Source: Candidatus Iainarchaeum sp. (lineage in GTDB: Archaea > Iainarchaeota > Iainarchaeia > Iainarchaeales > 0-14-0-20-34-12). Taken from it: a stretch of 31,485 bases of DNA. A model generated the notes under the pieces. That model saw nothing but the letters and a program-made list of their open reading frames with translations. It had not been told where the DNA came from and did no database searches. The stretch covers positions 1 to 31,485 of the forward strand of contig JAUSKK010000011.1 in assembly GCA_030649345.1 (NCBI GenBank). Direction: 5' to 3'. Within the stretch, counting starts at the first letter, position 1. The number at the start of each line of letters is the position of its first letter. A program made the position numbers and the translations under genes. Shown here piece after piece: positions 1,596 through 31,094 of the stretch.

Positions 1596-4555
1596 TAATA
1601 GTCCCTCGAAGTTTTTTTGTAAGCTTGAGTTAATTCGTCCACTGGAATGTTTGCAATTTCTTTTCCATTTAATCCATTTATTTTTACATTGTTTCCAGTA
1701 ACTTTTCCAATTTCTTTGAATGCAATTCCTTTCAATGTTTGTTCAAACTCTTTTTTGTTTTCTGGATTTATTGTTGCAATAATTCTTCCTTGGCTTTCAC
1801 TAAACAAAGCATATTCGTTTCTGAAAACAGTTCCAGGCAATTCATGTAAACTAATTTCACAGCCCAGTTGTCCAGCAATACTCATTTTGGTTACGGCAAT
1901 TCCAAATCCACCGAGTCCAATGCTTTGGGCTGAAGTAATTAATTCTTTTTCTATGGATTGTTCTATTTTTTCATAAATTTGTTTGTTTTTTTCACCATTT
2001 ACTTTTGGAACACTGTTGCCTAAACCTTGTTCGATCATTCGATAATATTCGGATCCACCTAATTCTTCGAAGGTTTCTCCGATTATGTAAATCAAATCAT
2101 TTTCTGTTTTGAAGTCTAGAGAAATTGTTTTTTCACAATTTTCAATTACTCCAATGGATGTAACCAATAATGTGGGTGGAATCGAAATTTTTACTGATTC
2201 TCCAATTTCGTTAAATCCTTTAAAGTCATTGAACATGCTATCCTTTCCGGAAATAAACGGAGCGCCATAAACTGTTGCATAATCATAACATGCTTTGACT
2301 GCTTGTTTTAATTGCCCCAATCTTTCGGATTCAGTTGGACTACACCAACAAAAATTATCTAATAACGCCATTTTTTTCAAATTAGCTCCGGCACAAATTA
2401 CATTCCGAATAGCTGTATCAATGGCGCAGGCAGCCATGGCGTATGAATCAATTTCGCTGTATCCTGGATACAATGCTTGCGATAAAACAACTCCTTTGTC
2501 TGAATCCAGTAAAGGTTTGGATACTGTTGCATTTGAGTTTACTCTTCCTTTTCCTTGCAATGGTTTTTGCACAGATCCTCCTTGGACTTCGTGATCGTAT
2601 TGTTTGGAAATAAATTCATAGCTTGCAATATTCAGTCTTTGAATCATTTTCAATAAATCTGAATTTAAATTTTCTTTTTCTTGAATTAATGGTTCTGGAA
2701 AATTGGGTTTTGTGTACGTTGTCTTCAGTTGTTTTTTAGGCAATCCATTATGTAAGAATTCTAAATCTAATTCCATTATTTTTTTTCCATTAAACATTAC
2801 TTCGCATTTTCCAGTGTTCATGAATTCTCCAATGATTGTTGCTTCGACTCCGCGTTGATTCATTAATTCTTCAAATTTTTCCCATTTTTCTTTTGGAATA
2901 CTTAAAGTCATTCGTTCTTGAGATTCAGAAATCCAAATTTCCCAAGGCTGTAGTCCAGGATATTTTAAAGGAACTTTATTTAATTCAACAAAACAGCCAT
3001 TGCTTTCTTTTGCCATTTCTGCAATCGAACAAGACAAGCCGCCTGCTCCATTGTCTGTAATGCTGGAATACAATTCTAGATCGCGAGCTTCTTTTACTAT
3101 TGCATCGCTTAATTTTTTTTGAGTAATTGGATCTCCAATTTGTACTGCAGTTACTGGGCTTCCAGCATCCATGGCTTCGGATGAAAATGTTGCACCGTGA
3201 ATTCCGTCTTTTCCTACTCTGCCTCCAATGACTACAACATACTCTCCTGAATTTGCTTTTTTTTCATGCAATTTTTTATATTTGTTTGTTTTTGGAATCA
3301 ATCCAACAGTTCCAACAAACACTAAGGGTTTTCCTTTGTATCTAGAGTCAAAGTACATGAATCCTTGCGGTGTAGGAATCCCAGACTGATTGCCTCCGGC
3401 ATTGACTCCTTGAATAACGCCTAACATGATTTGTTTTGGGCTTAACATTTTTTGAGTAAAATTAGCTCCTTTATACAAAGGCTGTGCGTCTTTAGGGTCT
3501 CCAAAACAAAAACCATATTGATTCATGACTGGTTTAGCTCCTAAACCAAATCCAATGCAGTCTCGATTAACTCCTACAATTCCTGTAATGGCTCCACCGA
3601 ATGGATCTAAAGCGCTGGGACTATTGTGTGTTTCTACTTTGTGAGTAATGGCATAATTTTCATCAAAGTCTATGGCTCCAGAATTGTCTGTGAAAACAGA
3701 AATACAGAAATCTTGTGCTCCTTTTTCTTTTCTAATTTTTTCTGTGGCTCCCTTAATGTATGTTTTGTACAATCCTTTATCCAATTCATCTATGGGGCCT
3801 GCAAAAATTGTGTGCTTGCAGTGCTCTGACCAAGTTTGTGCCAATGATTCTAATTCAATGTCTGTTGGATTTCTATTTAATTCTTTAAAGTATGCTTGAA
3901 TTGTTTTCAAGTAATCTAAACTTAAAGCCAAAGGACCTCTTCTCGAGCTATCCTTGTTTTGAATTCCTTTTTTGCCCAATTCTTCTAATTCTAAGTCAGT
4001 CATTTCCAAAATTTTAACTAAATCTACTTTAGTTTCTTGGCTTAGTTTTACTTTGGGTACAATTTTGTTCATTCCTTTTTGTTTTTGAAATTGTTCAAAA
4101 TTTTTAATATGAATCCGTTGAATTAATGGATTGGCTAAACCATTGCCAATTTGAATTGCTTCTTGTTCAGTTAATTTTCCTTGAATAAAAGTTATTTGCG
4201 AACTATACGCATGTTCTTCTGTTTTAAATTTTCGTTTCAGCAAGTCTTCGATTTCTTCTTGAACTGTGTTTCCTATATTGTCTGTAACTCCAGGCAAATA
4301 TCCTATTTCAATAGCATAATCAAATTGATTTACTTGAGCTGGTTGGTTAATAAAAGCAATTTCTGAAACTGGATTATGCAATGAGTTGGCAATTTGTTGT
4401 AATTCTTTTTCTGAAAAGTTTCCTTCAAGAGTATACACGTCCACAATTTCTATTTGCTGGATTTTTTTTCCAAAATCAGTTTGTTCTAGTTGCTTTTTTC
4501 GCACTTCAGCTCGAGTATCCAAATGTTTGCTTTTAACTTCAATTCTGTGGATCAT
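1595..4555 (-). CDS. purL: FGAM synthase PurL with two N-terminal PurS-like domains (PurS-PurS-PurL fusion)
   Basis: PurL core motifs WSEHCKHTIF, VETHNSPSALDPFGGA and ITDNGAGGLS. About 190 extra N-terminal residues form two PurS-like repeats. The track start at 4573 is a TTG. The first ATG is at 4555 (MIHRIEV) and lies 25 nt downstream of a TATA-like box, so I prefer 4555. Confidence 0.9.
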   Translation of the reverse strand: MIHRIEVKSKHLDTRAEVRKKQLEQTDFGKKIQQIEIVDVYTLEGNFSEKELQQIANSLHNPVSEIAFINQPAQVNQFDYAIEIGYLPGVTDNIGNTVQEEIEDLLKRKFKTEEHAYSSQITFIQGKLTEQEAIQIGNGLANPLIQRIHIKNFEQFQKQKGMNKIVPKVKLSQETKVDLVKILEMTDLELEELGKKGIQNKDSSRRGPLALSLDYLKTIQAYFKELNRNPTDIELESLAQTWSEHCKHTIFAGPIDELDKGLYKTYIKGATEKIRKEKGAQDFCISVFTDNSGAIDFDENYAITHKVETHNSPSALDPFGGAITGIVGVNRDCIGFGLGAKPVMNQYGFCFGDPKDAQPLYKGANFTQKMLSPKQIMLGVIQGVNAGGNQSGIPTPQGFMYFDSRYKGKPLVFVGTVGLIPKTNKYKKLHEKKANSGEYVVVIGGRVGKDGIHGATFSSEAMDAGSPVTAVQIGDPITQKKLSDAIVKEARDLELYSSITDNGAGGLSCSIAEMAKESNGCFVELNKVPLKYPGLQPWEIWISESQERMTLSIPKEKWEKFEELMNQRGVEATIIGEFMNTGKCEVMFNGKKIMELDLEFLHNGLPKKQLKTTYTKPNFPEPLIQEKENLNSDLLKMIQRLNIASYEFISKQYDHEVQGGSVQKPLQGKGRVNSNATVSKPLLDSDKGVVLSQALYPGYSEIDSYAMAACAIDTAIRNVICAGANLKKMALLDNFCWCSPTESERLGQLKQAVKACYDYATVYGAPFISGKDSMFNDFKGFNEIGESVKISIPPTLLVTSIGVIENCEKTISLDFKTENDLIYIIGETFEELGGSEYYRMIEQGLGNSVPKVNGEKNKQIYEKIEQSIEKELITSAQSIGLGGFGIAVTKMSIAGQLGCEISLHELPGTVFRNEYALFSESQGRIIATINPENKKEFEQTLKGIAFKEIGKVTGNNVKINGLNGKEIANIPVDELTQAYKKTSRDY

Positions 4556-8712: not shown

Positions 8713-9951
8713 ATGAATTGGAAAAATGGTTTGATAATATTATTTTTGTTTTTATTTTGTTTAAATTCTTTGGCTTTAACTTTTTCAATTACCAATGTTC
8801 GGTACGATCCTATTCCAGCCATTCCTGGAAAAACCATTGATTTATTTGTTACTGTAAAAAATGATTCTACTTTGCCGGCGGAGAATTTTGAATTTGTTTT
8901 AAATCTTCATCCGGATGGAAAGCCTTCGGATTTTCCTTTTTCTTTGGCTGGAGATTCTTTAACCAAGACAGTTTCTTCTTTGGTGGGTGGTCAAAGTACA
9001 GTTATTAAATATACTTTATTAATTGACAACCGGGCTCCTTCGGGTGCTTATTTAATTCAATTTTCATACGGTGCAAGAAATGACGTAAAAAATACTGCAT
9101 TGTATTCTGTTTCAGTTATTGGAAGAAAACCTCAATTGGAATTAATTGAAGTTCCTTTACTGCAAGGTAGACCGGGCGGAATTTTAGAAACTGCTTTGGT
9201 TATAAAAAATGTAGGTGACTCTGATGCGTTTGGTATTTTGGTTGGAGTGGAAGAAGATCGAACAGTTACCACTGCAGGTACTGTAGTTGAACGAGAAATT
9301 TTACCCATTGGATTAAGTTCTACATTTGTGGCAAGTCTTAAAGCAGGAGAACAACAGACTGTAACTTTAAATTTAGGCATTGCCCCCAATATTGCTTTGA
9401 AAACGTATTTTGTTCCAATTAAAATTAGATTCAAAGACTTTAATGGAACTGAATATTTGGTTACTCGAACAATTGGAATTCAAGTGAATGCAGATGCTGG
9501 TTTAGATTTTAGTCTTTCTCAAATTAAGCCTTTGGCTTTTCCTGGACAAACAGTTGAATTATCTTTTGATATTTTTAATCTAGGAGAAGGGCCGGCAAAG
9601 TTTACAATCGTATCTTTGACAGCAGATACTGAAACTGGAATTTTTTTAAATCCAAAAACATATATTGGAACATTGGAATCCGATGATTTTGATTCTTTTA
9701 AAACAAAACTAGAAATTAATTCTGCAAGCTCTACGGGTCAAAAAATTATAACCGTTACAGCTGCCTACAAAGACCAATATGGTTCCGAAAAATCTGTTTC
9801 AAAAACACTTTTTTTGGAAGTATATTCTGAAGCTCAAGCTAAAGCTAAATCAGGCCAGTCTTCGAATGGAATTTTGGATTTAGTTTTGTTAATTGTTGGT
9901 CTGGGAATCATTTTTTGGGTTTATAAAAAATTTATAAAAAAATCCAAATAA
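8713..9951 (+). CDS. Exported, C-terminally anchored surface protein with three beta-sandwich (CARDB/COG1361-like) repeats
   Basis: N-terminal signal-like helix and C-terminal TM plus basic tail (LVLLIVGLGIIFWVYKKFIKKSK). Three internal repeats share the pattern P-G-x-T/I-x-L-x(3)-hydrophobic-x-N-x-G/S. An AGGTGA Shine-Dalgarno sits 7 nt upstream. Confidence 0.6.
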   Translation: MNWKNGLIILFLFLFCLNSLALTFSITNVRYDPIPAIPGKTIDLFVTVKNDSTLPAENFEFVLNLHPDGKPSDFPFSLAGDSLTKTVSSLVGGQSTVIKYTLLIDNRAPSGAYLIQFSYGARNDVKNTALYSVSVIGRKPQLELIEVPLLQGRPGGILETALVIKNVGDSDAFGILVGVEEDRTVTTAGTVVEREILPIGLSSTFVASLKAGEQQTVTLNLGIAPNIALKTYFVPIKIRFKDFNGTEYLVTRTIGIQVNADAGLDFSLSQIKPLAFPGQTVELSFDIFNLGEGPAKFTIVSLTADTETGIFLNPKTYIGTLESDDFDSFKTKLEINSASSTGQKIITVTAAYKDQYGSEKSVSKTLFLEVYSEAQAKAKSGQSSNGILDLVLLIVGLGIIFWVYKKFIKKSK

Positions 9952-9957
9952 TTTGAG

Positions 9958-11196
9958 GTGCTGTTGGTGGATTTTGAAACCTTGAGTGTTGCATTTCGTA
10001 ATCTTCGACGCGAAGGAGTTAGAACTTATCTGACTTTAATTGGAGTCATTATTGGAATTGCTGCAATTGCTGCTTTGTTGTCCATAGGTCAAGGCTTAAA
10101 TTTTGCAATCGAAGAACAATTTCAGCAATTGGGTACAAATACTATTTTTATTACGCCTGGCGGTTTAAGTCCAGGGACTTCGAGTGCTCGCAGTGCTGCA
10201 GTAGCCAGTAGAACTTCTTCTGTTTTGCATGATGCTGATTTGCGTGCTATTGAATCTTTTTCTGAAGTAGATGAAGTGATTCCTCTTTTTTCGTTTAGTT
10301 CGCTTGTAAAACATGCTGCAGAAACTGTTAATTCCAGTATTTTGGCTTTTGATCCAGTAAAAGCAGAGTCTTTGTTGGCCACTGGTTTTATTGAAATTAA
10401 TGAAGGAAGATCCTTTGTTGAAAATGATGTGTTTACTGTTTTGGTTGGAAAAGATTTAGCCGAAAATGGTTTTTTGCGAGAAATTAAACCGCATACTTCA
10501 ATTGAAATTAATGGAAAACGTTTTCGAGTGATTGGAACATTAAAACAAGGCGCTCAAAGTATTGGCGGCGGACCCAATATTTCAAATACTTTAATTTTAA
10601 CCGAGAAAGGATTCAAGCAAGCATTTGGTTCAAGTCAAAGTCCTTTGTTTGTAATGGTGAAAACATTTGATCAAGATTCTACTCTTTCAGCTAAAGAAAA
10701 AATTGACCGTTATTTTGAACGACAATTTGGAGAAAAAGTTTTTACAGTAACCACTTCAGAGCAAGTATTAGAACAAGTAACTCAAGTTTTGGGTTTAATT
10801 TCTTTATTTTTGGTTGGAATTGCTGCCATTTCTTTGGTGGTAGGTTCTCTAGGAATCATGAATGCCATGGTTACCAATGTATTGGAGCGAACTACGGAGA
10901 TTGGCGTCATGAAAGCTATTGGTGCAACCAATTCCAGAATTCTTTCATTGTTTTTAACAGAAGCTGCATTAATTGGATTGATTGGAGGCATTATTGGCTT
11001 GATTTTGGGTTTCTCAGCATCTCAATTGGTCGCTATTCTAGGTCAATCTGCTGGCTTTAACTTAAAAGCTATTTTAGACATTCCAACTATTTTATTCATT
11101 TTAGGCTTTTCAATGTTTATTGGAATGATTTCAGGCTATTATCCTGCCTTGCGTGCTTCTCGCATGGATCCAGTGGATGCCTTACGAAGAGAATAA
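9958..11196 (+). CDS. ABC transporter permease, FtsX/MacB family
   Basis: N-terminal TM (RTYLTLIGVIIGIAAIA), a large extracytoplasmic domain and three C-terminal TMs, ending YYPALRASRMDPVDALR. The start is uncertain: GTG at 9958, or TTG/GTG at 9964/9967 downstream of GAGGTG. Confidence 0.85.
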   Translation: MLLVDFETLSVAFRNLRREGVRTYLTLIGVIIGIAAIAALLSIGQGLNFAIEEQFQQLGTNTIFITPGGLSPGTSSARSAAVASRTSSVLHDADLRAIESFSEVDEVIPLFSFSSLVKHAAETVNSSILAFDPVKAESLLATGFIEINEGRSFVENDVFTVLVGKDLAENGFLREIKPHTSIEINGKRFRVIGTLKQGAQSIGGGPNISNTLILTEKGFKQAFGSSQSPLFVMVKTFDQDSTLSAKEKIDRYFERQFGEKVFTVTTSEQVLEQVTQVLGLISLFLVGIAAISLVVGSLGIMNAMVTNVLERTTEIGVMKAIGATNSRILSLFLTEAALIGLIGGIIGLILGFSASQLVAILGQSAGFNLKAILDIPTILFILGFSMFIGMISGYYPALRASRMDPVDALRRE

Positions 11197-19184: not shown

Positions 19185-19577
19185 TTATTTCAAGCTAATT
19201 TGAATGCAGTCTGCGCAAGTCATTTTTCCACAGTTTCTTTTTTCACAGTCTTTGTTCCATTTGGATTCCCATTTTACAATTTCGTGCAGTACTTCCTGCA
19301 ATTCTTTTCCTTTTTCAGTAAGTAAATACTCTGACTTTTTTACTTTTTTGACGGAAGATTGTTTTTTTTCAATTAAAGACCATTGTTCTAATTTTTTTAA
19401 TCTTTGACTTAAAACTTTAGGCGTAATTCCATTTAAGATTTTTGTTAAATCATTAAAATGCATGGCTTTTTTGGATTCAAAGCAGAGCAAAAGTGCACAA
19501 ACCCATTTTTTTCCTAAAACGTGTGTTGTATTGTTAATTGGGCATTCTTGAAAAAATGTGCGAACCTTTGAATTCAT
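19185..19577 (-). CDS. HxlR-family winged-helix transcriptional regulator with a C-terminal four-Cys extension
   Basis: N-terminal CPINNTTHVLGKKW (the conserved HxlR Cys-Pro context), followed by the HTH. The tail carries C-x4-C-x4-C-x2-C (DCEKRNCGKMTCADC). Confidence 0.8.
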   Translation of the reverse strand: MNSKVRTFFQECPINNTTHVLGKKWVCALLLCFESKKAMHFNDLTKILNGITPKVLSQRLKKLEQWSLIEKKQSSVKKVKKSEYLLTEKGKELQEVLHEIVKWESKWNKDCEKRNCGKMTCADCIQISLK

Positions 19578-19610
19578 ATTTTCCTCGATAGCTTTCTAAA
19601 AAGATACTGT

Positions 19611-19626
19611 AGTTAATTAATTAACT
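19611..19626. promoter_or_regulatory. Perfect 16-bp palindrome in the divergent HxlR / MsrQ-like promoter region
   Basis: AGTTAATTAATTAACT is its own reverse complement. It lies 34-49 nt from the HxlR ATG and 25-40 nt from the 19651 ATG, at TATA-box distance for both genes. Confidence 0.4.
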
Positions 19627-19650
19627 TAATGTTTTAAATTATCTAATACC

Positions 19651-20259
19651 ATGAAAGAGCTCAAGCCTCATTTAATTTCAATTCTAGTAATTCTTATTCT
19701 TTCCTGGTACTATTTCATTTACTCTGGCCGTCCTTTGGCTTTAAATTTTGTAAATGCAGTAACTGCATTTTCATCCACATTCATTATTGGCTTGTCTTTT
19801 CTCTGGGGTCCTTTAGCTCGCTTTATTCCAATTTTCAAGCATACTTTAAGTTACCGTAAGCCTTTGGGCTTATGGGGTTTTGGCTTGGCTGCCCTTCATG
19901 TCTTGTTGGTTGTATTTGTTTTATTGGGTAATTCTCGTGAAGTGACTTTTGCAGACATTGTATCCATTGGTGTTGCAGCAGTTGCGTTTGTAATCTTTTC
20001 TTTAATGGCTTTGACTTCCAGCAATGAATGGGTTGTCAAGTTAGGTTACTCTAATTGGAAAAGCTTACAGCGCACAGGTTATCTTGCTTTTGCGTTTGTT
20101 TTATTTCATATTGTTTTATTAGAAAAAGGAATTTTTTTAAGTCGATTAACTGGACAAATTGCCATTGGATTTATTTTAGTTATTTTTTTACTGCGTGCTT
20201 TGGTTTTATTGTTTAAAATTCCTTTGCCTGAACAGCCTATGAATCCAACTGCAAAGTAA
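19651..20259 (+). CDS. Ferric-reductase-like / MsrQ (YedZ)-like haem-b membrane protein
   Basis: Six TMs. His-bearing helices GLWGFGLAALHVLLVV and GYLAFAFVLFHIVLLE. ALTSSNEWVVKLGYSNWKSLQRTGY resembles the MsrQ core. Confidence 0.7.
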   Translation: MKELKPHLISILVILILSWYYFIYSGRPLALNFVNAVTAFSSTFIIGLSFLWGPLARFIPIFKHTLSYRKPLGLWGFGLAALHVLLVVFVLLGNSREVTFADIVSIGVAAVAFVIFSLMALTSSNEWVVKLGYSNWKSLQRTGYLAFAFVLFHIVLLEKGIFLSRLTGQIAIGFILVIFLLRALVLLFKIPLPEQPMNPTAK

Positions 20260-20315
20260 TGAAATCCTAACGTAAAATAATAGGCTGGAAATTTTTCCTT
20301 AATTCGTTTTTTTCT

Positions 20316-21044
20316 TTAATTCGTTTTCTTATTTTTTAATGAATCTTGTTTCAATTCGCCTACATGTTCTCCGAACTGTGTTCTTTGCTGAATTTGCACA
20401 AAAATCAATCCAATTCTTACCATCAAAGCAATAATGGCCAATGCTAAAAAAAGTTTTCCGAAAGGACGGACATCCAATCCAATTTCGGGTTTGGTTTCCA
20501 AAATAACAAAATGAATTGCACTCAAAAATAAAGCAATGTATCCTGTGGTTTGCAATTTTTTCCAGTTTGCATAACCCATTTTTTCTACAGATTTTTGAGT
20601 AGACGTTAAAGCCATCAGCATGAAAATAACAAAAGCAATTACTCCGGCTAAAATTCCTTCTAGTTTTGGATTATTAAAAATCATTTGGTCTAAGCTTAAA
20701 TTGTAAATAAAAATTACTGAATACAAAACATGCAGTGCAATTAATCCAAATCCGAATAATCCCAAAAATTTTCTCCAAACCAAAAAGCGGGCAAATTTTT
20801 TGGGAAACATTCGCGACAACGGACCCATTAAAAAAGTAATGGCCAATAAACCAATGCCGGCTAAAGCAGCTACTTTATTTAATTCTTTAAGCGAAAAACT
20901 CAAATCTTGAAACGAAATAACTTGAATTGTTTTTCCAAAATCTAAAGCCTGCGTTTTTTTATCATACCCGGTATAAAATAAAAGCAATGAAACAATTACT
21001 GCCAATGCTACAATCCATTGACCGAATTTTGGAACTGTAGTCAT
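20316..21044 (-). CDS. Second MsrQ (YedZ)-like haem-b membrane protein (paralog of 19651..20259)
   Basis: GLFGFGLIALHVLYSV, ALTSTQKSVEKMGYANWKKLQTTGY and SAIHFVILE align with the neighbouring copy. Confidence 0.7.
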   Translation of the reverse strand: MTTVPKFGQWIVALAVIVSLLLFYTGYDKKTQALDFGKTIQVISFQDLSFSLKELNKVAALAGIGLLAITFLMGPLSRMFPKKFARFLVWRKFLGLFGFGLIALHVLYSVIFIYNLSLDQMIFNNPKLEGILAGVIAFVIFMLMALTSTQKSVEKMGYANWKKLQTTGYIALFLSAIHFVILETKPEIGLDVRPFGKLFLALAIIALMVRIGLIFVQIQQRTQFGEHVGELKQDSLKNKKTN

Positions 21045-21086
21045 TCAATCAATCCTTAATCCATTGTCCTGTGTTGAAAACTTATT

Positions 21087-21599
21087 TTATTCAATTAGTC
21101 CTTCTTTAAGTTCTTTTTTAAATTTAATAATATTGGTTTTTCCCAATTCTTGTTTTTCAATTACTCCTTTATCCATTAATTTCAAAATAACTCGATGCGA
21201 TTTCAAGCGGGTCATTCCCGGCAGTCTCGAAACTTCTGCCTGTAAGGCTTGTCCTTTGCCTTCAATTAATTTATTCACTAAAGTTTGTTCGTCTTTGTCT
21301 AAAAATTGCAACAATACTTCAATATTGGATTTCAATGCTTTTTGTTTGGTTTCTACTTTTCCAGTCATTAAATAATATGTTCCAGCCCCAACCAGCAAAG
21401 CAATACTTACCAATAAAGGAATAACTTGAGTTAAAATTTCCACTTTTTGTTCATATGGGCAAATACCTTGTTCATTGACATGTATAAATTCTAATTGAGA
21501 TTCAGGGATTGGAGCAAATACTTGAATTCCAATTAAAACAAATAAAATAAAAGAAACTAAAATAACTATTCCTAAAACAATTTTTTTATTCGAATTCAT
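21087..21599 (-). CDS. Membrane-tethered winged-helix (MarR/TrmB-like) regulator
   Basis: Two TMs flank a roughly 30-aa outside loop with one Cys (NEQGICPYEQ). The C-terminal wHTH reads LVNKLIEGKGQALQAEVSRLPGMTRLKSHRVILKLMDKGVIEK. Confidence 0.6.
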   Translation of the reverse strand: MNSNKKIVLGIVILVSFILFVLIGIQVFAPIPESQLEFIHVNEQGICPYEQKVEILTQVIPLLVSIALLVGAGTYYLMTGKVETKQKALKSNIEVLLQFLDKDEQTLVNKLIEGKGQALQAEVSRLPGMTRLKSHRVILKLMDKGVIEKQELGKTNIIKFKKELKEGLIE

Positions 21600-21615
21600 G
21601 TTATTTATCCTTTAG

Positions 21616-21669
21616 CTTTGTTTTTAGTTGTTCAATCTTTGTTTCAAGATTTGCTATATATTGTTTCAA
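21616..21669 (+). promoter_or_regulatory. Phased direct repeats (TTGTTT core; TTGTTTCAA twice) flanking a TATA-like box
   Basis: CTTTGTTT occurs at 21616 and 21637. TTGTTTCAA occurs at 21639..21647 and 21661..21669. Spacing is 21-22 nt. GCTATATATT lies at 21653..21662. Confidence 0.3.
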
Positions 21670-21709
21670 TAGTAGTTATTATAAGAATTTGTAAAACGAG
21701 GTGTTTTGA

Positions 21710-21814
21710 ATGGATGACTGTTGTAGTGAAAAAAACAAAAAAAAGGAAAAAATAGAACTGAAGACTGACTGTTGCGGTGCCTGTGTTGTTTCAGAAGAAA
21801 CTGCCGAAAAGTGA
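21710..21814 (+). CDS. Unannotated 34-aa Cys-rich micro-ORF (MDDCCSEKNKKKEKIELKTDCCGACVVSEETAEK)
   Basis: ATG preceded by GAGGTG (21698..21703) with a 6-nt spacer, and a TATA-like box about 50 nt upstream. It has five Cys arranged as CC-x15-CC-x2-C and lies directly upstream of the DsbA-like gene. It is below the ORF-track length cut-off. Confidence 0.45.
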   Translation: MDDCCSEKNKKKEKIELKTDCCGACVVSEETAEK

Positions 21815-21864
21815 ATCTGAGTCTAAGATAAAAATAGATTGTTTATCAAAAAATATGTGAAATT

Positions 21865-22812
21865 ATGGCGATTATTTGCATTGCAGCAGCACTTATTTTA
21901 GGAATCTTAGGCTTGTTTTCAGCCAAATATAGGCCTTTAGCTAAAGAAGCTTTTAGCTGTGCTTTTCGAACTCTAACTTTACGAAAATGTGACTCTAATT
22001 TAGAGCAAAAAATTAAAGCAAACATAACTGGTTTTACTAGCAAAATTTCACCCAAATTAGGCCAAATTACATTCAAGCATTTTTCAGTTATTTCCACTAT
22101 TTTTGTTTTATTGATTTTCGCAAGTTCAATTGGAATGATCTGGGGTATCTGGAACTTTTATCAGTATGGTAATTGCAATGGCCCAGAAAGCACAGATTTT
22201 TGTATCTTTGATCCAACTGGAACAGGAGAACAAGGATTTTCCAGAATCAATGCTCAGCAATCTTTGCAACAACCTTTAAACTTGCAGGGAATTAGTTACG
22301 GAAACGAAAATTCTGAAATTATTGTATACGAGTATGGTTGTTATTTGTGCCCGTATACAAAAAAAGCAGAACCTGTAGTCCAGCAATTACGCGAAGAATT
22401 CAAAGACCAAGTACATTTTGTATTCAAGTCTTTTCCTTTGCCGAAACACAATCAAAGTTTTGATGCGGCCAAAGCAAGCTATTGTGGAAAAGATCAAAAC
22501 AAATACTGGGAAATGCGCGAATTATTATTTTCCATGCAAGATTCTTGTGTTAGTCCGGATGTGAATGCTGAAATTTTTACACAAATGGCTGTACAATTAG
22601 ATTTAAATCAAACTCAATTTGAAATTTGCATGCAAAATCCAGATGTGAATACATCCGTTCAATCTTTGTACGATGAAGCTGTTCAAATTGGAGTTTATGG
22701 AACGCCTACATTTTTTATTGGAGAAAAATCATTTGTTGGCTCAGTAACCTATGATCAATTAAAGCAAGCTATTGAAGCAGAAATTGCAAAAAAACAAAAT
22801 GGTGGAAATTAA
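21865..22812 (+). CDS. Membrane-anchored DsbA-family thiol:disulfide oxidoreductase (2-TM N-domain fused to a thioredoxin fold)
   Basis: TM1 (residues 1-20), then a basic loop with C-x10-C (SCAFRTLTLRKC), then TM2. The DsbA-like domain carries GCYLCP (CxxC) and the cis-Pro loop YGTPTFF. Confidence 0.75.
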   Translation: MAIICIAAALILGILGLFSAKYRPLAKEAFSCAFRTLTLRKCDSNLEQKIKANITGFTSKISPKLGQITFKHFSVISTIFVLLIFASSIGMIWGIWNFYQYGNCNGPESTDFCIFDPTGTGEQGFSRINAQQSLQQPLNLQGISYGNENSEIIVYEYGCYLCPYTKKAEPVVQQLREEFKDQVHFVFKSFPLPKHNQSFDAAKASYCGKDQNKYWEMRELLFSMQDSCVSPDVNAEIFTQMAVQLDLNQTQFEICMQNPDVNTSVQSLYDEAVQIGVYGTPTFFIGEKSFVGSVTYDQLKQAIEAEIAKKQNGGN

Positions 22813-24023
22813 TGCTAAATGTAGAAAAAATTCGTGCAGACTTTCCAATGTTTTCAAATAATCCAAAAATGATTTACTTAGACAATGCCTGCACTACCTT
22901 TAAACCTAAACCAGTACTGCAAAGTATGAATGACTATTATGAAAAATTCAGTGCTTGTGCTGGACGAAGCCAGCATTTTTTAGGAAAATACGCTGAACAA
23001 TTATTCGAACAAGCTCGCAAAGACATCTCTGACTTTGTTCACTGTAAGCCTGAAGAAGTTGTATTCACTAAAAATTGTACTGAAGCCATTAATTTAGTCG
23101 CCAATGCGTATCCGTTTAGTTCTTCTAAAAATCAAGTTTTGACTACAGTCTTAGAACATCATTCTATGTTTTTGCCTTTTTATCAACAAGCTCAAGCTAA
23201 AAAAATTGAACTCAAAATAATGAATCCTTCCCAAGAAGGATTATTCACGCAAACAAATTGGAGTGAGGAAATTTCAGAACAAACAGGACTTGTTGCAATT
23301 CATGGGATGAACAATACTTTAAGCACTCAGCCGGATTCAGAAAAAATTGTGAAAGCAGCTCATGCAAAAAATGCAAAAGTTTTAGTGGATGGCGCTCAAT
23401 TAATTCCGCATACTGATTTTAATTTCAAGAAGTCTGATGTGGATTTTTTGGCATTCTCAGGCCATAAGATGGTTGGCCCTACTGGCATTGGCTGCTTGAT
23501 TGCTAAAAAAGAACTCTTGGAAAAATTAAATCCTTTTTTAGTAGGTGGAGAAACCATTGAAAGTGTTTCTTTAAATCAAGTGATTTACACAAAAGCACCC
23601 CATAAATTTGAAGCAGGAATTCAGAATTATTCTGGCGCCATAGGTTTAGCTGCAGCGTGTAAGTATTTGAAAAAAATCGGATTAAAAAACATTGAAGTAC
23701 AAGAACAAAATTTAATGAAAATCTTGCTTTCAGAAACTTCTAAAATTTCAAACTTTAAACTAATCGGGCCATCCAATGCCGCTCAAAGAAACGGAATTTT
23801 AACATTTAATTTAGGAAACGCACATCCACATGAAGTTGCTATTATGTTGGATTCTTTGAATAAAGTTTGTGTTCGCTCTGGAGTATTTTGCGCCCAGCCT
23901 GGAATGACTTTTCTAGGTTATCCAGATGGAGCTGTTCGTGCTAGTTTATACTTGTATAATTCAGAACAAGACATTCAAGTGTTTTTAGATACTTTGAAAA
24001 AGGTTTCGAAAATAGTTAGTTAA
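22812..24023 (+). CDS. Cysteine desulfurase (class V aminotransferase, SufS/CsdA-like)
   Basis: PLP-Lys motif FSGHKMVGPTGIG and catalytic Cys context RSGVFCAQPG. Its ATG overlaps the upstream stop (TAATG). Confidence 0.88.
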   Translation: MLNVEKIRADFPMFSNNPKMIYLDNACTTFKPKPVLQSMNDYYEKFSACAGRSQHFLGKYAEQLFEQARKDISDFVHCKPEEVVFTKNCTEAINLVANAYPFSSSKNQVLTTVLEHHSMFLPFYQQAQAKKIELKIMNPSQEGLFTQTNWSEEISEQTGLVAIHGMNNTLSTQPDSEKIVKAAHAKNAKVLVDGAQLIPHTDFNFKKSDVDFLAFSGHKMVGPTGIGCLIAKKELLEKLNPFLVGGETIESVSLNQVIYTKAPHKFEAGIQNYSGAIGLAAACKYLKKIGLKNIEVQEQNLMKILLSETSKISNFKLIGPSNAAQRNGILTFNLGNAHPHEVAIMLDSLNKVCVRSGVFCAQPGMTFLGYPDGAVRASLYLYNSEQDIQVFLDTLKKVSKIVS

Positions 24024-24047
24024 TGAAGTGCCTGGGAGGAATTTTAA

Positions 24048-24404
24048 ATGAGTAAATTATTTTTAGCCAGTATAGGAATTTTGTTATTGGTAATTTTGGC
24101 TGGATGTACTGCTGAAGTACCTAAATTTGTGGATTCTGCGTCTCCAGTAATGTATTTTCAAAGTCCAAAATGTCATTTTTGTATTCAACAAAAACCAATC
24201 TTGTTAGAATTAGCAGATGAAGGCTTTCGTTTAAAAGACATGGATGTTTTAGCCAATCCAGGTTACTGGCAGGCATACAATATTTCTGGAACTCCTACAT
24301 TTTTAGCAGACAATGGCGATCGATTAGTCGGATTGCAATCCAAAGATAAACTCAGAGACTGGCTTGAAACACATGGCGCCAAAATTGCAGTAAGCGGAAA
24401 CTAA
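24048..24404 (+). CDS. Thioredoxin-fold lipoprotein (CxxC = CHFC)
   Basis: Lipobox LAGC, SPKCHFC, and cis-Pro loop SGTPTF. A GGGAGG Shine-Dalgarno sits about 9 nt upstream. Confidence 0.75.
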   Translation: MSKLFLASIGILLLVILAGCTAEVPKFVDSASPVMYFQSPKCHFCIQQKPILLELADEGFRLKDMDVLANPGYWQAYNISGTPTFLADNGDRLVGLQSKDKLRDWLETHGAKIAVSGN

Positions 24405-24434
24405 TTCCGCTTTCTATTTTTCTTTTTTATTTTT
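24392..24434 (+). terminator. Hairpin plus T-tract terminator closing the DsbA-SufS-Trx operon
   Basis: AAGCGGAA-actaa-TTCCGCTT forms an 8-bp stem with the stop codon in its loop. It is followed by TCTATTTTTCTTTTTTATTTTT. Confidence 0.5.
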
Positions 24435-24460
24435 ATCGTCAATTGTTCATTGCTTAACCA

Positions 24461-24468: not shown

Positions 24469-24488
24469 AACTCAAACATTATTTTTCT

Positions 24489-25430
24489 ATGACCTCAGAT
24501 ATTTTGCCTGTAATTAATTCTTTTGAAGCGCCAGTGCCTAAAACCAACAAACCAGAATGGCTGAAAATTAGGCCTCCAACCACAGAAGAATATGCAAAAA
24601 TTAAACTCAGAATTAAATCTCTTAAACTAAACACAGTTTGCCAAGAAGCACATTGTCCGAATATGAGTGAATGCTGGTCTGGTGGAACAGCCACTTTTAT
24701 GGTAATGGGTGATACTTGTACTCGGGGCTGTAAATTTTGTGCAGTAAAAACTTCCAGAAAACCTTTGCCTTTAGATCTCCAAGAACCAGTCAAACTAGCT
24801 GAAGCCATTAAAGAAATGAATTTAGATTATGTTGTAATTACTTCAGTGGACAGAGATGATTTAAATGATCAAGGAGCCAATCATTTTGCTGAATGCATTC
24901 AAGAAGTCAAGAAACAAAATCCTAAAATTTTAATTGAAGTATTAACTCCAGACTTTCGAGGAAACACGGACTGCTTGGATATTGTATTGAATGCAAAACC
25001 AGATGTTTTTGCTCACAATATTGAAACAGTTCAAAGACTGCAAAGCACTGTACGTGACCCTAGAGCAAATTATGTTCAATCTTTATTTGTTTTAGATTAC
25101 ATTAAAAAACAAGATTCTAAAATGTACACCAAGAGTTCAATCATGGTTGGCTTAGGCGAACAAGATTCAGAAATTTTACAAACCTTAGATGATTTGAGAT
25201 CTAAAGGTGTTTCAGTTGTAACTTTTGGACAATACTTGCAGCCATCGCAGAATCATTTAACTGTAACTGAATTTGTGACTCCAGAAAAATTCAAATGGTT
25301 TGAAGAACAAGCATTGCTGAAAGGTTTCCTTTACTGTGCTTCTGGTCCATTTGTCCGCAGTTCCTATAAAGCAGGAGAATATTTTTTAAAAAACGTAATT
25401 CATTCAAGTGAAATCAATGCGAAACCTTAG
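24489..25430 (+). CDS. lipA: Lipoyl synthase
   Basis: N-terminal auxiliary-cluster motif CQEAHCPNMSECW and radical-SAM motif CTRGCKFCAV (C-x3-C-x2-C). Confidence 0.93.
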   Translation: MTSDILPVINSFEAPVPKTNKPEWLKIRPPTTEEYAKIKLRIKSLKLNTVCQEAHCPNMSECWSGGTATFMVMGDTCTRGCKFCAVKTSRKPLPLDLQEPVKLAEAIKEMNLDYVVITSVDRDDLNDQGANHFAECIQEVKKQNPKILIEVLTPDFRGNTDCLDIVLNAKPDVFAHNIETVQRLQSTVRDPRANYVQSLFVLDYIKKQDSKMYTKSSIMVGLGEQDSEILQTLDDLRSKGVSVVTFGQYLQPSQNHLTVTEFVTPEKFKWFEEQALLKGFLYCASGPFVRSSYKAGEYFLKNVIHSSEINAKP

Positions 25431-26025
25431 ACCTAGATTAGCTCGAAGAAGAATGATTCACGGAAAATCAATTCAATTAATTGGAATTGGTGATGAAGGA
25501 AAAGCTTGGAAACTTAAAAGTTTTGGAAAACGAAAACCTATAGTCGTAAAAGTGTATAAAAAAACAGCCAATCCCAAAAAAGTTAGACATGATTATATTG
25601 CCCGGCAAATTGCTTGGTTATTGTTTCCTAAAAATTTTCCAAAATCGTATTCAATGACAATTCATAAAAGCCGCATTCGAATTGCACAACAATACCGCGA
25701 ACCCAATCCTGAACTTAAAGCATTGCAAGTGGAAATGATTGAAGGCACTCCCGAAAGCGAACACACAGCTCATCTTATTCAAATGTTTGCTGGAAACGAT
25801 AATTCGACAAAACGTTTGATTGAAATTCGTGCAGCTGGTCTTTCACCAGATTCTTTTGCCGCCAATTATGGTTTTTTTAATCCCAGCGAACCTGTGGTTT
25901 ATGAATTAAAACGATTGAATTCCAAAAGAGTTCGCAGTTATTTGGCAAAACAAGCCATGCCGGTTCGAAGACGTAGACAAATTTTAAAATTATTGGAAGA
26001 ATATGAACGTATGGAAAAATTTTAG
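25417..26025 (+). CDS. Family-A basic protein of unknown function (paralog of 11204..11926)
   Basis: Carries the same ordered motifs as 11204..11926. The track start is GTG at 25408. The ATG at 25417 aligns best with the paralog N-terminus. Either start overlaps the lipA 3' end (by 14-23 nt). Confidence 0.55.
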   Translation: MRNLRPRLARRRMIHGKSIQLIGIGDEGKAWKLKSFGKRKPIVVKVYKKTANPKKVRHDYIARQIAWLLFPKNFPKSYSMTIHKSRIRIAQQYREPNPELKALQVEMIEGTPESEHTAHLIQMFAGNDNSTKRLIEIRAAGLSPDSFAANYGFFNPSEPVVYELKRLNSKRVRSYLAKQAMPVRRRRQILKLLEEYERMEKF

Positions 26026-28947: not shown

Positions 28948-29523
28948 TTAGACCTTTAGCCAGCCACGAAACGCTCTAGCACTATAGTAAGAAGGTGCAC
29001 TGTTGTGGTATACAAATACTTTGCCGTAGCGGCGATCAGCAAAAAGGGCGCCACCGAGTTTTCTAATATCTAAAGGTGTTTTCACCCAGCTGGATGTCTT
29101 TAAATCGAAATTTCCAAGCTTCTGCAATTCTCGATATTGTTCTTCGGTTAAAAGCTCAATGCCCATGGCAGCTGCCATATCCATTGCATTATTTTTTGGT
29201 TTAAATGTTTTTCTGAACTCCAGTCCTTCTCGGTCGTAACAAACATTTCTTCGGCCATTGGGACTTTCCGTTGAACAATCATAAAAAATATATTCGCCTG
29301 TCTTTTTATCCTGGCCAACAACATCGGGTTCACCGTCCGTTCTTTCCATTTCATTGAGTGACCAAAGTTTTTCAGTATTTGCTTCCAGCTTTGCTTGTAT
29401 TTTAGTCCATTCAAGACCTTTATGGCGATTCATGTTTTTTTCAAAACGAGCTTTCAATACTTTGAGTAATTCTTTACATTGCTCGGGTGACAACTTTTTT
29501 TTATTGTTATTATTTTTGTTCAT
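28948..29523 (-). CDS. DUF4256-family protein (mainly bacterial family)
   Basis: Long runs match my recollection of DUF4256: LWSLNEMERTDGEPDVVG, MAAAMGIELLTEEQYRELQKLG, TSSWVKTP and IRKLGGALF. Its 3' part is markedly GC-richer than its neighbours. Confidence 0.6.
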   Translation of the reverse strand: MNKNNNNKKKLSPEQCKELLKVLKARFEKNMNRHKGLEWTKIQAKLEANTEKLWSLNEMERTDGEPDVVGQDKKTGEYIFYDCSTESPNGRRNVCYDREGLEFRKTFKPKNNAMDMAAAMGIELLTEEQYRELQKLGNFDLKTSSWVKTPLDIRKLGGALFADRRYGKVFVYHNSAPSYYSARAFRGWLKV

Positions 29524-30005: not shown

Positions 30006-31094
30006 ATGCCTAAAGAAAAGGTATTTGAAGGAAAAATCGAATTTTTGCAAATTTTAGACGAACAAGGCAATTTAGATGATTCCTTAGAGCCTAAACTCAA
30101 AAACAGCGAATTGGACCATTATTACAAAACCATGGTTTTTTGCAGAATTGCAGACGATAAAGCTTTAGCCTTGCAAAGACAAGGCCGAGTTGGAACCTTT
30201 GCTCCTACTGCAGGTCAAGAAGCTGCTCAAATTGCCAGTGCCAGTTTACTAAGGAAGACAGACTGGTTAGTTCCAAGTTTTCGTGAAGCCATTGCAGCTA
30301 TAGTACGCGGTACTCCTTTGCATAAAATTTATCAATACATTTCTGGAGTCGAAGAAGCTTCTCGTTTGCCTGAAGGCTGTAAAGATTTGCCTGTAAGTAT
30401 TCCTGTAGGTTCTCAAATGCTGCATGCTGTAGGCTTAGGCTATGCTGAAAAATTAAAAGGAACTGATAATTTAGCTTTAACTTATTTTGGAGACGGTGCT
30501 ACCAGTGAAGGAGAATTTCATGAAGCAGCCAATTTAGCTGGAGTATATCAAACGCCTACTATTTTCTTTTGTCAAAACAATCAATGGGCAATTTCAGTTC
30601 CAAGATCAAGACAAACGCATTCAAAAACAATTGCACAAAAAGCATTTGCTTACGGAATGGCTGGAGTTCAAGTGGACGGAAATGATATCTTGGCAGTTCA
30701 TACAGCTACAGCGGATGCTATTGAACGTGCAAGAAATGGGCAAGGTCCAACTTTAATTGAAGCAGTAACTTACCGGCAAAAAATGCATACTACTGCAGAT
30801 GATCCAACCAAATACAGAGATCCTAAAGTTCACGATGAATGGATGAAAAAAGATCCAATTTCTCGATTTAAAATTTATTTAAAATACAAAGGAATTTGGA
30901 GTGAAGAATACGAAAAACAAGTTTGGGCAGACGCTCAAGCTAAAGTAGAAGAAGAAGTTAAAATTTTTGAAGCATTAAAAGCTCCACCAATAGAAGACAT
31001 GTTCAAGTATGTGTATGCGGAAATGCCAGAATATTTAATTGAAGAAATGGAAGAATTAAAGCAAGCAATGGCTGAAAAGGAATTAGAACAATAA
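30006..31094 (+). CDS. 2-oxoacid (pyruvate/branched-chain/acetoin) dehydrogenase E1 component, alpha subunit
   Basis: Thiamine-diphosphate motif YFGDGATSEGEFHEAANLAGVYQTPTIFFCQNNQWAIS. Confidence 0.9.
   Translation: MPKEKVFEGKIEFLQILDEQGNLDDSLEPKLKNSELDHYYKTMVFCRIADDKALALQRQGRVGTFAPTAGQEAAQIASASLLRKTDWLVPSFREAIAAIVRGTPLHKIYQYISGVEEASRLPEGCKDLPVSIPVGSQMLHAVGLGYAEKLKGTDNLALTYFGDGATSEGEFHEAANLAGVYQTPTIFFCQNNQWAISVPRSRQTHSKTIAQKAFAYGMAGVQVDGNDILAVHTATADAIERARNGQGPTLIEAVTYRQKMHTTADDPTKYRDPKVHDEWMKKDPISRFKIYLKYKGIWSEEYEKQVWADAQAKVEEEVKIFEALKAPPIEDMFKYVYAEMPEYLIEEMEELKQAMAEKELEQ

Follow-up and report, generated by a model that had tools for sequence, protein, structure and literature searches.

In the VKOR-thioredoxin (Trx) fusion of Synechococcus (PDB 3KP9/4NV2), the DsbB-DsbA pair and MauE, a membrane domain with conserved cysteines on its outer face is placed N-terminal to an exported Trx fold, and serves to regenerate oxidised DsbA or Trx, the role proposed below for a different membrane domain. 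MauE was recognised as a DsbB-like enzyme by the same fusion argument, and the same work restated that DsbB-like enzymes still to be found must exist (bioRxiv 10.64898/2026.03.05.709764). DsbD, CcdA and ScsB are built differently, with 6-8 transmembrane (TM) segments and relay cysteines in the bilayer, and import reducing power from thioredoxin. As a rule, a type II cysteine desulfurase depends on a Cys-bearing acceptor of its own, encoded alongside, as in SufS-SufE, SufS-SufU and CsdA-CsdE. Here we describe an operon on a complete 31,485-bp contig of Candidatus Iainarchaeum sp. (JAUSKK010000011.1; the whole contig is called the window; NCBI lists its proteins under 'Candidatus Diapherotrites archaeon', a metagenome-assembled genome) in which a DsbA-like protein, F, begins with a previously unannotated membrane domain (the N-domain, or module) and is followed directly by a SufS-like cysteine desulfurase, G.

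Regenerating oxidised DsbA without quinones or oxygen is an open gap in oxidative folding. To our knowledge, DPANN archaea are generally held to lack quinones and respiratory chains, and we know of no description of their disulfide machinery; they rely on surface proteins for host attachment. The N-domain offers a testable candidate: its family is small and delimited (356 clusters), its five cysteines are invariant, its place before Trx folds is fixed, and it has a specific partner enzyme. The family merits annotation even if the mechanism considered below is wrong.

A five-cysteine membrane domain in front of DsbA and other Trx folds

The N-domain of F consists of two hydrophobic helices, TM1 (aa 2-18) and TM2 (aa 73-101), joined by a basic helical loop (aa 20-72) that bears C32 and C42. 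C5 lies at the outer end of TM1, and TM2 is followed by the outer-face motif YGNC(104)NGPxSTxFC(113). The AlphaFold2 (AF2) model of full-length F (pLDDT 86.8; 78-94 over residues 1-100) has helices at residues 2-18, 20-37, 46-61, 63-71 and 73-101, the first and last being the only hydrophobic ones. C5, C32, C42, C104 and C113 are 99.5-100% conserved in 407 distinct sequences. In an alignment of 30 homologs (A1) they are invariant together with F18, S19 and R23, and the first ~120 residues are as conserved as the DsbA domain. The five cysteines are also invariant in N-domain forms without DsbA. The initial annotation had taken the N terminus of F for a plain 2-TM anchor; it is instead the most conserved and most informative element, and it is linked to SufS. 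In F homologs the inter-helix loop carries a mean of 12.5 K/R against 4.0 D/E, and the linker after TM2 1.7 K/R against 6.3 D/E. From the positive-inside rule, C32 and C42 are predicted to be cytoplasmic, with C5, C104, C113 and the DsbA domain outside.

Searches with the N-domain gave no Pfam match at E < 0.1, no NCBIfam match and, with its profile, nothing among PDB sequences at E < 10. Foldseek with an AF2 model of the N-domain alone (pLDDT 74) found no PDB fold match (best E 6.8, VKOR being among the targets). With null results from the PDB-sequence, Foldseek and Pfam searches, a remote VKOR or DsbB was rejected as an identity for the domain. The N-domain differs from VKOR, DsbB and MauE in having two TM helices where these have four or five, in lacking their 4-helix bundle with CxxC or CXC, in showing no sequence or fold similarity to them, and in its invariant cytoplasmic Cys pair. 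Furthermore, nothing points to a quinone, and the partner gene of the module encodes a cysteine desulfurase. With DsbD, CcdA and ScsB the module shares cysteines on both sides of the membrane, a cytoplasmic thiol protein tied to exported Trx-fold clients, and Trx-like fusions. In contrast to their 6-8 TM core with intramembrane cysteines, however, it has two TM helices with cysteines at the helix ends and in the loop, none mid-membrane, and no Pfam DsbD match; its partner makes an oxidant, sulfane sulfur, whereas theirs supplies reducing power.

The N-domain is thus a previously unannotated membrane module of two TM helices, a cytoplasmic Cys pair and an outer Cys trio. It behaves architecturally like DsbB, VKOR and MauE and genomically like SufE and SufU, although the membership tests of these families and of CcdA and DsbD place it in none of them. 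What is new here is the N-domain as a membrane partner of exported Trx-fold oxidoreductases, a kind of partner already known.

Searched against 1.84 billion representative proteins, a profile of the N-domain recovered 356 clusters. In the best 150 of these clusters the domain starts at most ~40 residues from the N terminus, mostly at residue 1, and it is N-terminal in every member examined. Current annotations of members read 'thioredoxin domain-containing protein' or 'hypothetical protein'; the named ones without DsbA are 'hypothetical protein' from metagenome-assembled genomes of Nanoarchaeota and Aenigmarchaeota. A search for homologs of F gave 477 clusters, the 120 best listed all measuring 290-327 aa and those with a named source coming almost all from DPANN archaea. 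Full-length relatives are 35-45% identical to F of the window, and 391 GTDB species genomes encode one. Full-text literature searches turned up no description of the N-domain or of a DsbA-desulfurase pairing.

The DsbA domain of F scored 84.8 bits with Thioredoxin_4 and 58.5 bits with DSBA, each above the Pfam cutoff. Its best Foldseek matches were alpha-DsbA2, ScsC, C. diphtheriae DsbA, TsdA and BdbD, with E down to 1.6e-9; for alpha-DsbA2, BdbD, C. diphtheriae DsbA and ScsC, E was 1e-9 to 1e-6 and the target TM-score 0.59-0.83. The C159-x-x-C162 motif and T280-P281 of the cis-Pro loop (GTPTFF) are invariant in the 30 homologs, as is a second Cys pair, C207/C255. By these features, which include a thioredoxin fold with a helical insertion, the domain is an ordinary member of the DsbA family, with a predicted role as oxidase.

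DsbA is not the only domain found behind the module. Among the 149 best representatives of N-domain proteins scanned, 92 carry DsbA and 57 do not, and most of the latter end in a small Trx-like CxxC domain, a conserved Cys-rich tail (~150 aa) or a short tail. The Trx domain fused in P0243/P0283 has as its best PDB relative the Trx of the Synechococcus VKOR-Trx fusion (E = 1.6e-20), the domain that VKOR oxidises, and the module therefore occupies VKOR's position. In a sub-family comprising P0171, P0198 and P0232 (loci L108, L125, L134, L148 and L168), the N-domain is followed by a conserved extracytoplasmic Cys-rich tail with no Trx fold, whose pattern is roughly CGSEHC..GC.C...C......ACEGNC.C....CG.

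The last gene of the operon, H, encodes an exported Trx-like protein that matches Thioredoxin_2 and Thioredoxin in Pfam. A lipobox follows its hydrophobic signal segment (MSKLFLASIGILLLVILAGC), and lipidation is predicted from this motif. The N-domain fusion protein P0297 ends in a Trx domain with which H shares 36% identity over 85 aa (E = 6e-21), and fusions of the N-domain to an H-like Trx occur at six metagenome loci, with a SufS-like gene directly downstream. Because H is homologous to a Trx that is fused with the module elsewhere, Rosetta-stone logic suggests that it is probably a second client of the membrane module.

Linkage of the N-domain to a SufS-like desulfurase

G has no signal sequence and no TM helix, and matches Aminotran_5 with 377 bits. 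Against the SufS subfamily model TIGR01979 it scored 418 bits (cutoff 475) and against NF006791 303 bits (cutoff 661), both below cutoff; four further module-linked desulfurases reached 420-450 bits on TIGR01979, always under 475. The motif of the lysine that binds pyridoxal phosphate (PLP), SGHKM, and that of the catalytic Cys, RSGxxC, are kept in nearly all aligned module-linked homologs. The catalytic-Cys loop of G reads RSGVFCAQP, and two motif subtypes occur among the linked homologs. Judged by its scores and motifs, G is a divergent type II desulfurase with an intact catalytic apparatus.

The neighbourhood of the module gene was examined in two independent samples. The first comprised 80 species-genome loci with up to 10 kb per side, from Micrarchaeota, Woesearchaeota, Aenigmatarchaeota, Iainarchaeota and Nanoarchaeota; the second comprised 80 metagenome loci from a scan seeded with non-DsbA forms (the GTCDP-type subset A4). 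Adjacency was counted on stop-to-stop open reading frames (ORFs) matched by phmmer, with a comparison to gene calls for five loci only. Phylogenetically, the 160 loci are not independent, yet they cover several DPANN lineages and both gene orders.

In 106 of the 160 loci, the 3 kb next to the module gene contain a SufS-like gene of the same orientation, whereas any other same-strand neighbour family is found in at most 11. Among loci with at least 1.3 kb of flank on both sides, 36 of 59 species genomes have a SufS-like gene directly adjacent on the same strand, a further 11 have one within 10 kb and 12 have none; for the 32 metagenome contigs the corresponding counts are 19 adjacent, nine more within 5 kb and four without. 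The gene stands downstream of the module gene in 43 genomes and upstream in eight, and downstream in 13 and upstream in 27 of the metagenome loci, being mostly downstream in DsbA-type loci and mostly upstream in the other types. Broken down by fusion type, SufS-like genes were adjacent or nearby in 20 + 7 of 38 Trx-like, 7 + 1 of 19 Cys-rich-tail, 5 + 2 of nine short-tail and 6 + 0 of 12 DsbA loci, most of the SufS-less loci in these counts having a flank below 1.3 kb. In the window and in L086-L089, where genes were called, F-G type spacing is a gap or overlap of 1-4 nt, and behind a stand-alone N-domain protein of 154 aa without DsbA the SufS-like gene starts 2 bp later. The linkage is specific, and since it is seen with all architectures, including this stand-alone protein, it tracks the N-domain and not DsbA.

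The initial annotation had proposed nine adjacent genes as one undescribed envelope thiol system. A search with phmmer of all window proteins against the six-frame ORFs of the 80 species genomes did not bear out a nine-gene system, as SufS alone recurs: HxlR was found at one locus, the ferric-reductase domain (FRD) at two, D weakly at ~9, and LipA and H at none. All-against-all clustering of the ORFs near F gave the same outcome, with the SufS-like gene as the sole recurrent neighbour. The proposal had been tied to conservation of the neighbourhood in relatives, and for seven of the nine genes it is not conserved. The idea of a single system therefore stands for F and G, and for H through the fusion argument, and falls for the rest. 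The window does hold an envelope thiol system without canonical partners, and E-F-G-H remains a sensible operon.

We consider it highly likely that F and G, possibly with H, form a functional thiol/sulfur module built around the N-domain. The two genes might instead be co-expressed for cysteine/thiol homeostasis or under metal/thiol stress without any physical coupling, G being a general desulfurase kept beside F. This would agree with the ~12-20% of well-flanked loci that have no SufS nearby, with the varying regulators and metal genes around the pair, and with the appearance of G as an ordinary type II enzyme. However, the linkage persists between proteins of 35-45% identity from at least five DPANN lineages, whichever gene comes first and whichever of four architectures the C terminus has, and the spacing is typically 1-4 nt while all other neighbours turn over. 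One genome with an N-domain-Trx fusion (L175) has both a NifS/IscS-NifU_N pair and a separate SufS-like gene, at 1682-3275 and 9876-11090 and both within 5 kb of the module, so that the SufS-like enzyme is not the sole desulfurase there. Co-expression without coupling is therefore improbable.

The F-G pair resembles SufS-SufE, SufS-SufU and CsdA-CsdE in that a type II desulfurase adjoins, and is translationally coupled to, a region with an invariant cysteine (RKC-x-[ST]-G), and in that no other acceptor lies near. It differs in that the acceptor role would fall to a membrane protein's cytoplasmic loop, in that no SufBCD genes adjoin, and in the scores of the linked desulfurases, which at 418-450 bits all stay below the TIGR01979 cutoff. 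SufE, SufU and SufBCD genes are absent from the window and not recurrent in the 160 related loci.

Desulfurase persulfide as a possible oxidant

Cysteines on both faces of the membrane, fusions to Trx folds, the position otherwise held by VKOR and the coupling to a persulfide-making enzyme have to be accounted for together, and the simplest chemistry joining them is one in which the persulfide of the desulfurase would oxidise the module. F plus G would then be the functional unit, with H as a likely extra client. We give this reading a probability of roughly 40%. G would turn L-cysteine into alanine and be left with a persulfide on its catalytic Cys. C32 and C42 would accept the sulfane sulfur as SufE or SufU would, giving a C32-C42 disulfide and H2S; the release of sulfide from desulfurase persulfide by DTT in standard assays is the same chemistry. 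In the most conjectural step, the oxidising equivalent would cross the membrane to C5, C104 and C113 and pass on to the CxxC motifs of the fused DsbA and of H, which would finally oxidise exported proteins. The net reaction would be cysteine + 2 R-SH -> alanine + H2S + R-S-S-R. The module would thus stand in for DsbB, VKOR or MauE, with cysteine-derived sulfane sulfur and not quinone as the electron sink.

Several points weigh against this reading. A direct thiol-disulfide relay across ~30 A is unexplained in the model, because the membrane interior contains no cysteine: the helix ends on the outer face bear C5 and C104, and the cytoplasmic loop bears C32 and C42. To explain the crossing, one would have to invoke a re-entrant loop, oligomerisation, a cofactor or some sulfur species able to permeate the membrane. 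A persulfide is a mild oxidant compared with typical DsbA potentials, and oxidation would rely on removal of H2S and on irreversible C-S cleavage. DsbB, VKOR, SufE, SufU and SufBC may be encoded outside the window in the same genome. Finally, ~12-20% of the long-flank loci have no SufS within 5-10 kb, and one stand-alone N-domain gene has no adjoining SufS.

The same SufS linkage and Cys conservation would also suit a relay of sulfur in place of electrons. The N-domain would then be a membrane acceptor of the SufE/SufU type that takes sulfane sulfur from G and delivers it to the three outer cysteines and the Trx or Cys-rich domains, serving extracytoplasmic persulfidation, metal-sulfide or cofactor chemistry, or the hand-over of sulfur to a host, and not disulfide formation. 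The window contains no dedicated Cys-bearing acceptor, many members carry a Cys-rich tail only, with no Trx fold, and a minority of loci have metal-handling genes close by (for a CopA-like ATPase in nine, MerT/HMA-like and DUF411 proteins). On the other hand, residues 1-135 of F match none of the acceptor families SufE, SufU and TusA in Pfam (E < 0.1) or NCBIfam, the fusions to DsbA and to a VKOR-partner Trx indicate dithiol/disulfide chemistry, and the membrane-crossing problem is identical. We regard both a sulfur relay and these purposes for it as unlikely.

C32 and C42 could also bind an Fe-S cluster or a metal, for example with two Cys per subunit over a dimer, G building the cluster and the N-domain acting with a cytoplasmic electron carrier. 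They form an invariant CX9C in a basic helical loop, near which S19 and R23 are invariant too. Desulfurase genes often adjoin their Fe-S clients, and the Fe-S-dependent LipA comes after the operon in the window. Yet there are just two cytoplasmic cysteines, with no His, Asp or Glu among the invariant columns, LipA is a neighbour in none of the 160 loci, and it would be unusual for one cluster site to have a desulfurase of its own. This role for the cytoplasmic pair therefore appears quite improbable.

If desulfurase persulfide is indeed the oxidant, it would add sulfane sulfur to quinone, flavin/O2 and metal as a fourth chemistry of de novo disulfide generation, and cysteine desulfurases would gain a role beyond Fe-S and thio-cofactor synthesis. 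That DPANN archaea make their extracytoplasmic disulfides with such a new machine, the N-domain being oxidised by the SufS-like persulfide and cysteine serving as terminal oxidant, is a doubtful extension of this reading. There is likewise a realistic chance, though it is the less probable outcome, that the underlying chemistry is categorically new.

The MsrQ-like genes and other neighbours

The nine-gene region with its flank order, A(-), B(+), C(-), D(-), E-F-G-H(+), lies within 19185-24404 (Table 1). The ORF listing contains all nine ORFs that the initial annotation had claimed, and their domain assignments were upheld by Pfam and NCBIfam. The TAATG overlap of F and G can be read directly in the sequence, and the hairpin with its T-tract is present after H. 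The hairpin has a folding energy of -11.2 kcal/mol (z = -3.5), none of 200 shuffled sequences folds as well, and the T-rich run comes next. In agreement with the earlier account, a Pfam scan of the window over ORFs of at least 90 aa, minus antisense and embedded overlaps of annotated genes, found no MsrP-type molybdoenzyme, DsbB, VKOR, CcdA/DsbD or SufB/C/D/E/U; tRNA genes and Rfam matches are absent from the window as well.

Table 1. Positions of the operon and its adjoining genes in the window
Feature	Positions	Strand	Details
A, HxlR-family regulator	19185-19577	-	C-terminal tail with four Cys
B, stand-alone ferric-reductase-domain (MsrQ-like) membrane protein	19651-20259	+	PF01794, 31.9 bits
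C, ferric-reductase-domain (MsrQ-like) paralog of B	20316-21044	-	PF01794, 49.1 bits
D, 2-TM protein with DUF7343 winged helix	21087-21599	-	divergent from E-H
E, 34-aa five-Cys peptide (CC...CCxxC), first operon gene	21710-21814	+	GAGGTG 6 nt upstream of ATG
F	21865-22812	+	Thioredoxin_4/DSBA; C159-Y-L-C162; two hydrophobic helices (Kyte-Doolittle)
F N-terminal domain, aa 1-123	21865..22233	+	core new element
DsbA domain of F, aa ~136-315, predicted extracytoplasmic	22270..22812	+	Pfam
G, type II (SufS-like) PLP cysteine desulfurase	22812-24023	+	start overlaps F stop (TAATG)
H, exported thioredoxin-like lipoprotein	24048-24404	+	LAGC lipobox, CHFC
Hairpin and T-rich tract closing E-F-G-H	24389..24435	+	hairpin 24389-24415

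B and C are convergent paralogs with 39% identity. When C is aligned with STEAP2/STEAP4, its two His face conserved His of the latter, one per TM segment in two segments; we take these conserved His to be the STEAP haem ligands. B shares both His, which belong to two different helices (ALHVL, LFHIV). The axial pair that the initial annotation had expected is thus kept. In this respect B and C resemble MsrQ of the MsrPQ (YedYZ) system. They differ from it in lacking MsrP, which is absent from the window and from the neighbourhoods of four C homologs, in scoring 34.9 (B) and 70.8 bits (C) with the MsrQ equivalog NF003831, below its cutoff of 130, and in being unlinked to F-G. The B family has 20 clusters and the C family 31, the named ones mostly from Diapherotrites; all but one are ~200-250 aa, with Ferric_reduct as the sole Pfam domain on record and no FRD-Trx fusion.

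The initial annotation had proposed, for the MsrQ-like haem-b proteins, a transfer of electrons through the membrane by which the exported DsbA and Trx would be re-oxidised or reduced. Besides the His pair, this proposal could appeal to FRD-like genes, which in L148 and L080 stand close to the module in the same orientation and in L163 and L020 lie within 2-6 kb of it, and to an apparent operon in L086 (CAYPFW010000002.1, 17008-19329) of Ferric_reduct (232 aa), a Pyr_redox_2 TrxR-like protein (303 aa) and DsbA (229 aa). This operon lies 6-8 kb downstream of the SufS-F pair and may be a separate FRD-DsbA link. However, by the family HMM, FRD-like ORFs occur within the fetched flanks of the module gene in just four of the 160 loci, which by a rough estimate is about what chance placement of 1-3 FRD genes in a ~1 Mb genome would give. 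All four C-homolog neighbourhoods lack F and the SufS-like gene, and have nothing in common with the window except a second FRD paralog in two. The B and C families are small and mostly of Diapherotrites, whereas the module spans DPANN lineages, and fusions of FRD to Trx are missing. We therefore rejected a linkage of FRD to the module. Service of DsbA and Trx by B and C is largely refuted by the missing neighbourhood conservation and is now a very remote prospect. A single 138-kb contig of one genome carries homologs of both C and F, ~30 kb apart.

A matched HxlR (PF01638) with 69.5 bits (cutoff 20.8) and is weakly similar to the redox transcription factors RrpA/RrpB. The divergent HxlR(-)/FRD(+) pair of the window (19185-20259) recurs in L020 (15017-17700), where a U32 peptidase gene stands between the two, and in L163 (3146-4445). 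This recurrence suggests that the target of HxlR regulation is the FRD gene, not the DsbA operon. By their gene content and distribution, A-B-C look like a separate, lineage-restricted small redox module that merely adjoins E-H.

D scored 30.2 bits with DUF7343; it has one Cys in a predicted outer loop, and its winged helix is predicted to be cytoplasmic. D-like genes stand upstream of the module in about 6-9 of the 80 genome loci (for example L087 and L086), and in this minority of lineages D is a candidate for regulating the locus. E also appears among the called genes of an independent Logan assembly and, since it has no hydrophobic segment, is presumably cytoplasmic. We considered a conserved Cys-rich leader like E and rejected it, as the small ORFs with at least four Cys upstream of F homologs in the 80 genomes are mutually non-homologous.

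The operon also recalls ScsABCD, in that ScsC is among the best fold matches of the F DsbA domain, a Trx-like lipoprotein and a small Cys-rich product are encoded, and copper or metal genes occasionally lie near related loci. It differs in having no ScsB/DsbD-like protein, in that metal genes are found at nine loci at most out of 160, and in that the desulfurase has no Scs counterpart. The metal genes are a CopA-like P-type ATPase in nine of the 160 loci (L081, 7709-9898, and eight others) and genes for a MerT/HMA-like membrane protein and a DUF411 protein (L080, 9225-9959; L086, 8349-8813). A small membrane protein with the motif NVCHTIC and a ~99-aa protein behind it, both unannotated, are each present in five loci (L163, 1494-2227): both in L163, L020, L069 and L148, the membrane protein only in L098 and the 99-aa protein only in L002. 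The pair stands directly downstream of the module gene in L163, L020 and L148.

Directly after the operon terminator, the window encodes LipA (lipoyl synthase, 416 bits; 24489-25430), and an E1 dehydrogenase component (30006-31094) lies 4.6 kb beyond it. Together they point to genes for lipoate-dependent metabolism in this DPANN genome; the position of LipA beside the module is not conserved. A basic 205-aa ORF with a GTG start (25408-26025, +) overlaps lipA by 23 nt at the 3' end of the latter; this ORF has no family match and corresponds to a 202-aa gene in the Logan assembly. Antisense ORFs of more than 100 aa within lipA (24479-24808, -) and within D (21064-21375, +) are most likely artefacts of the AT-rich sequence. 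A DUF4256 protein, matched very strongly (301 bits), is encoded at 28948-29523 (-).

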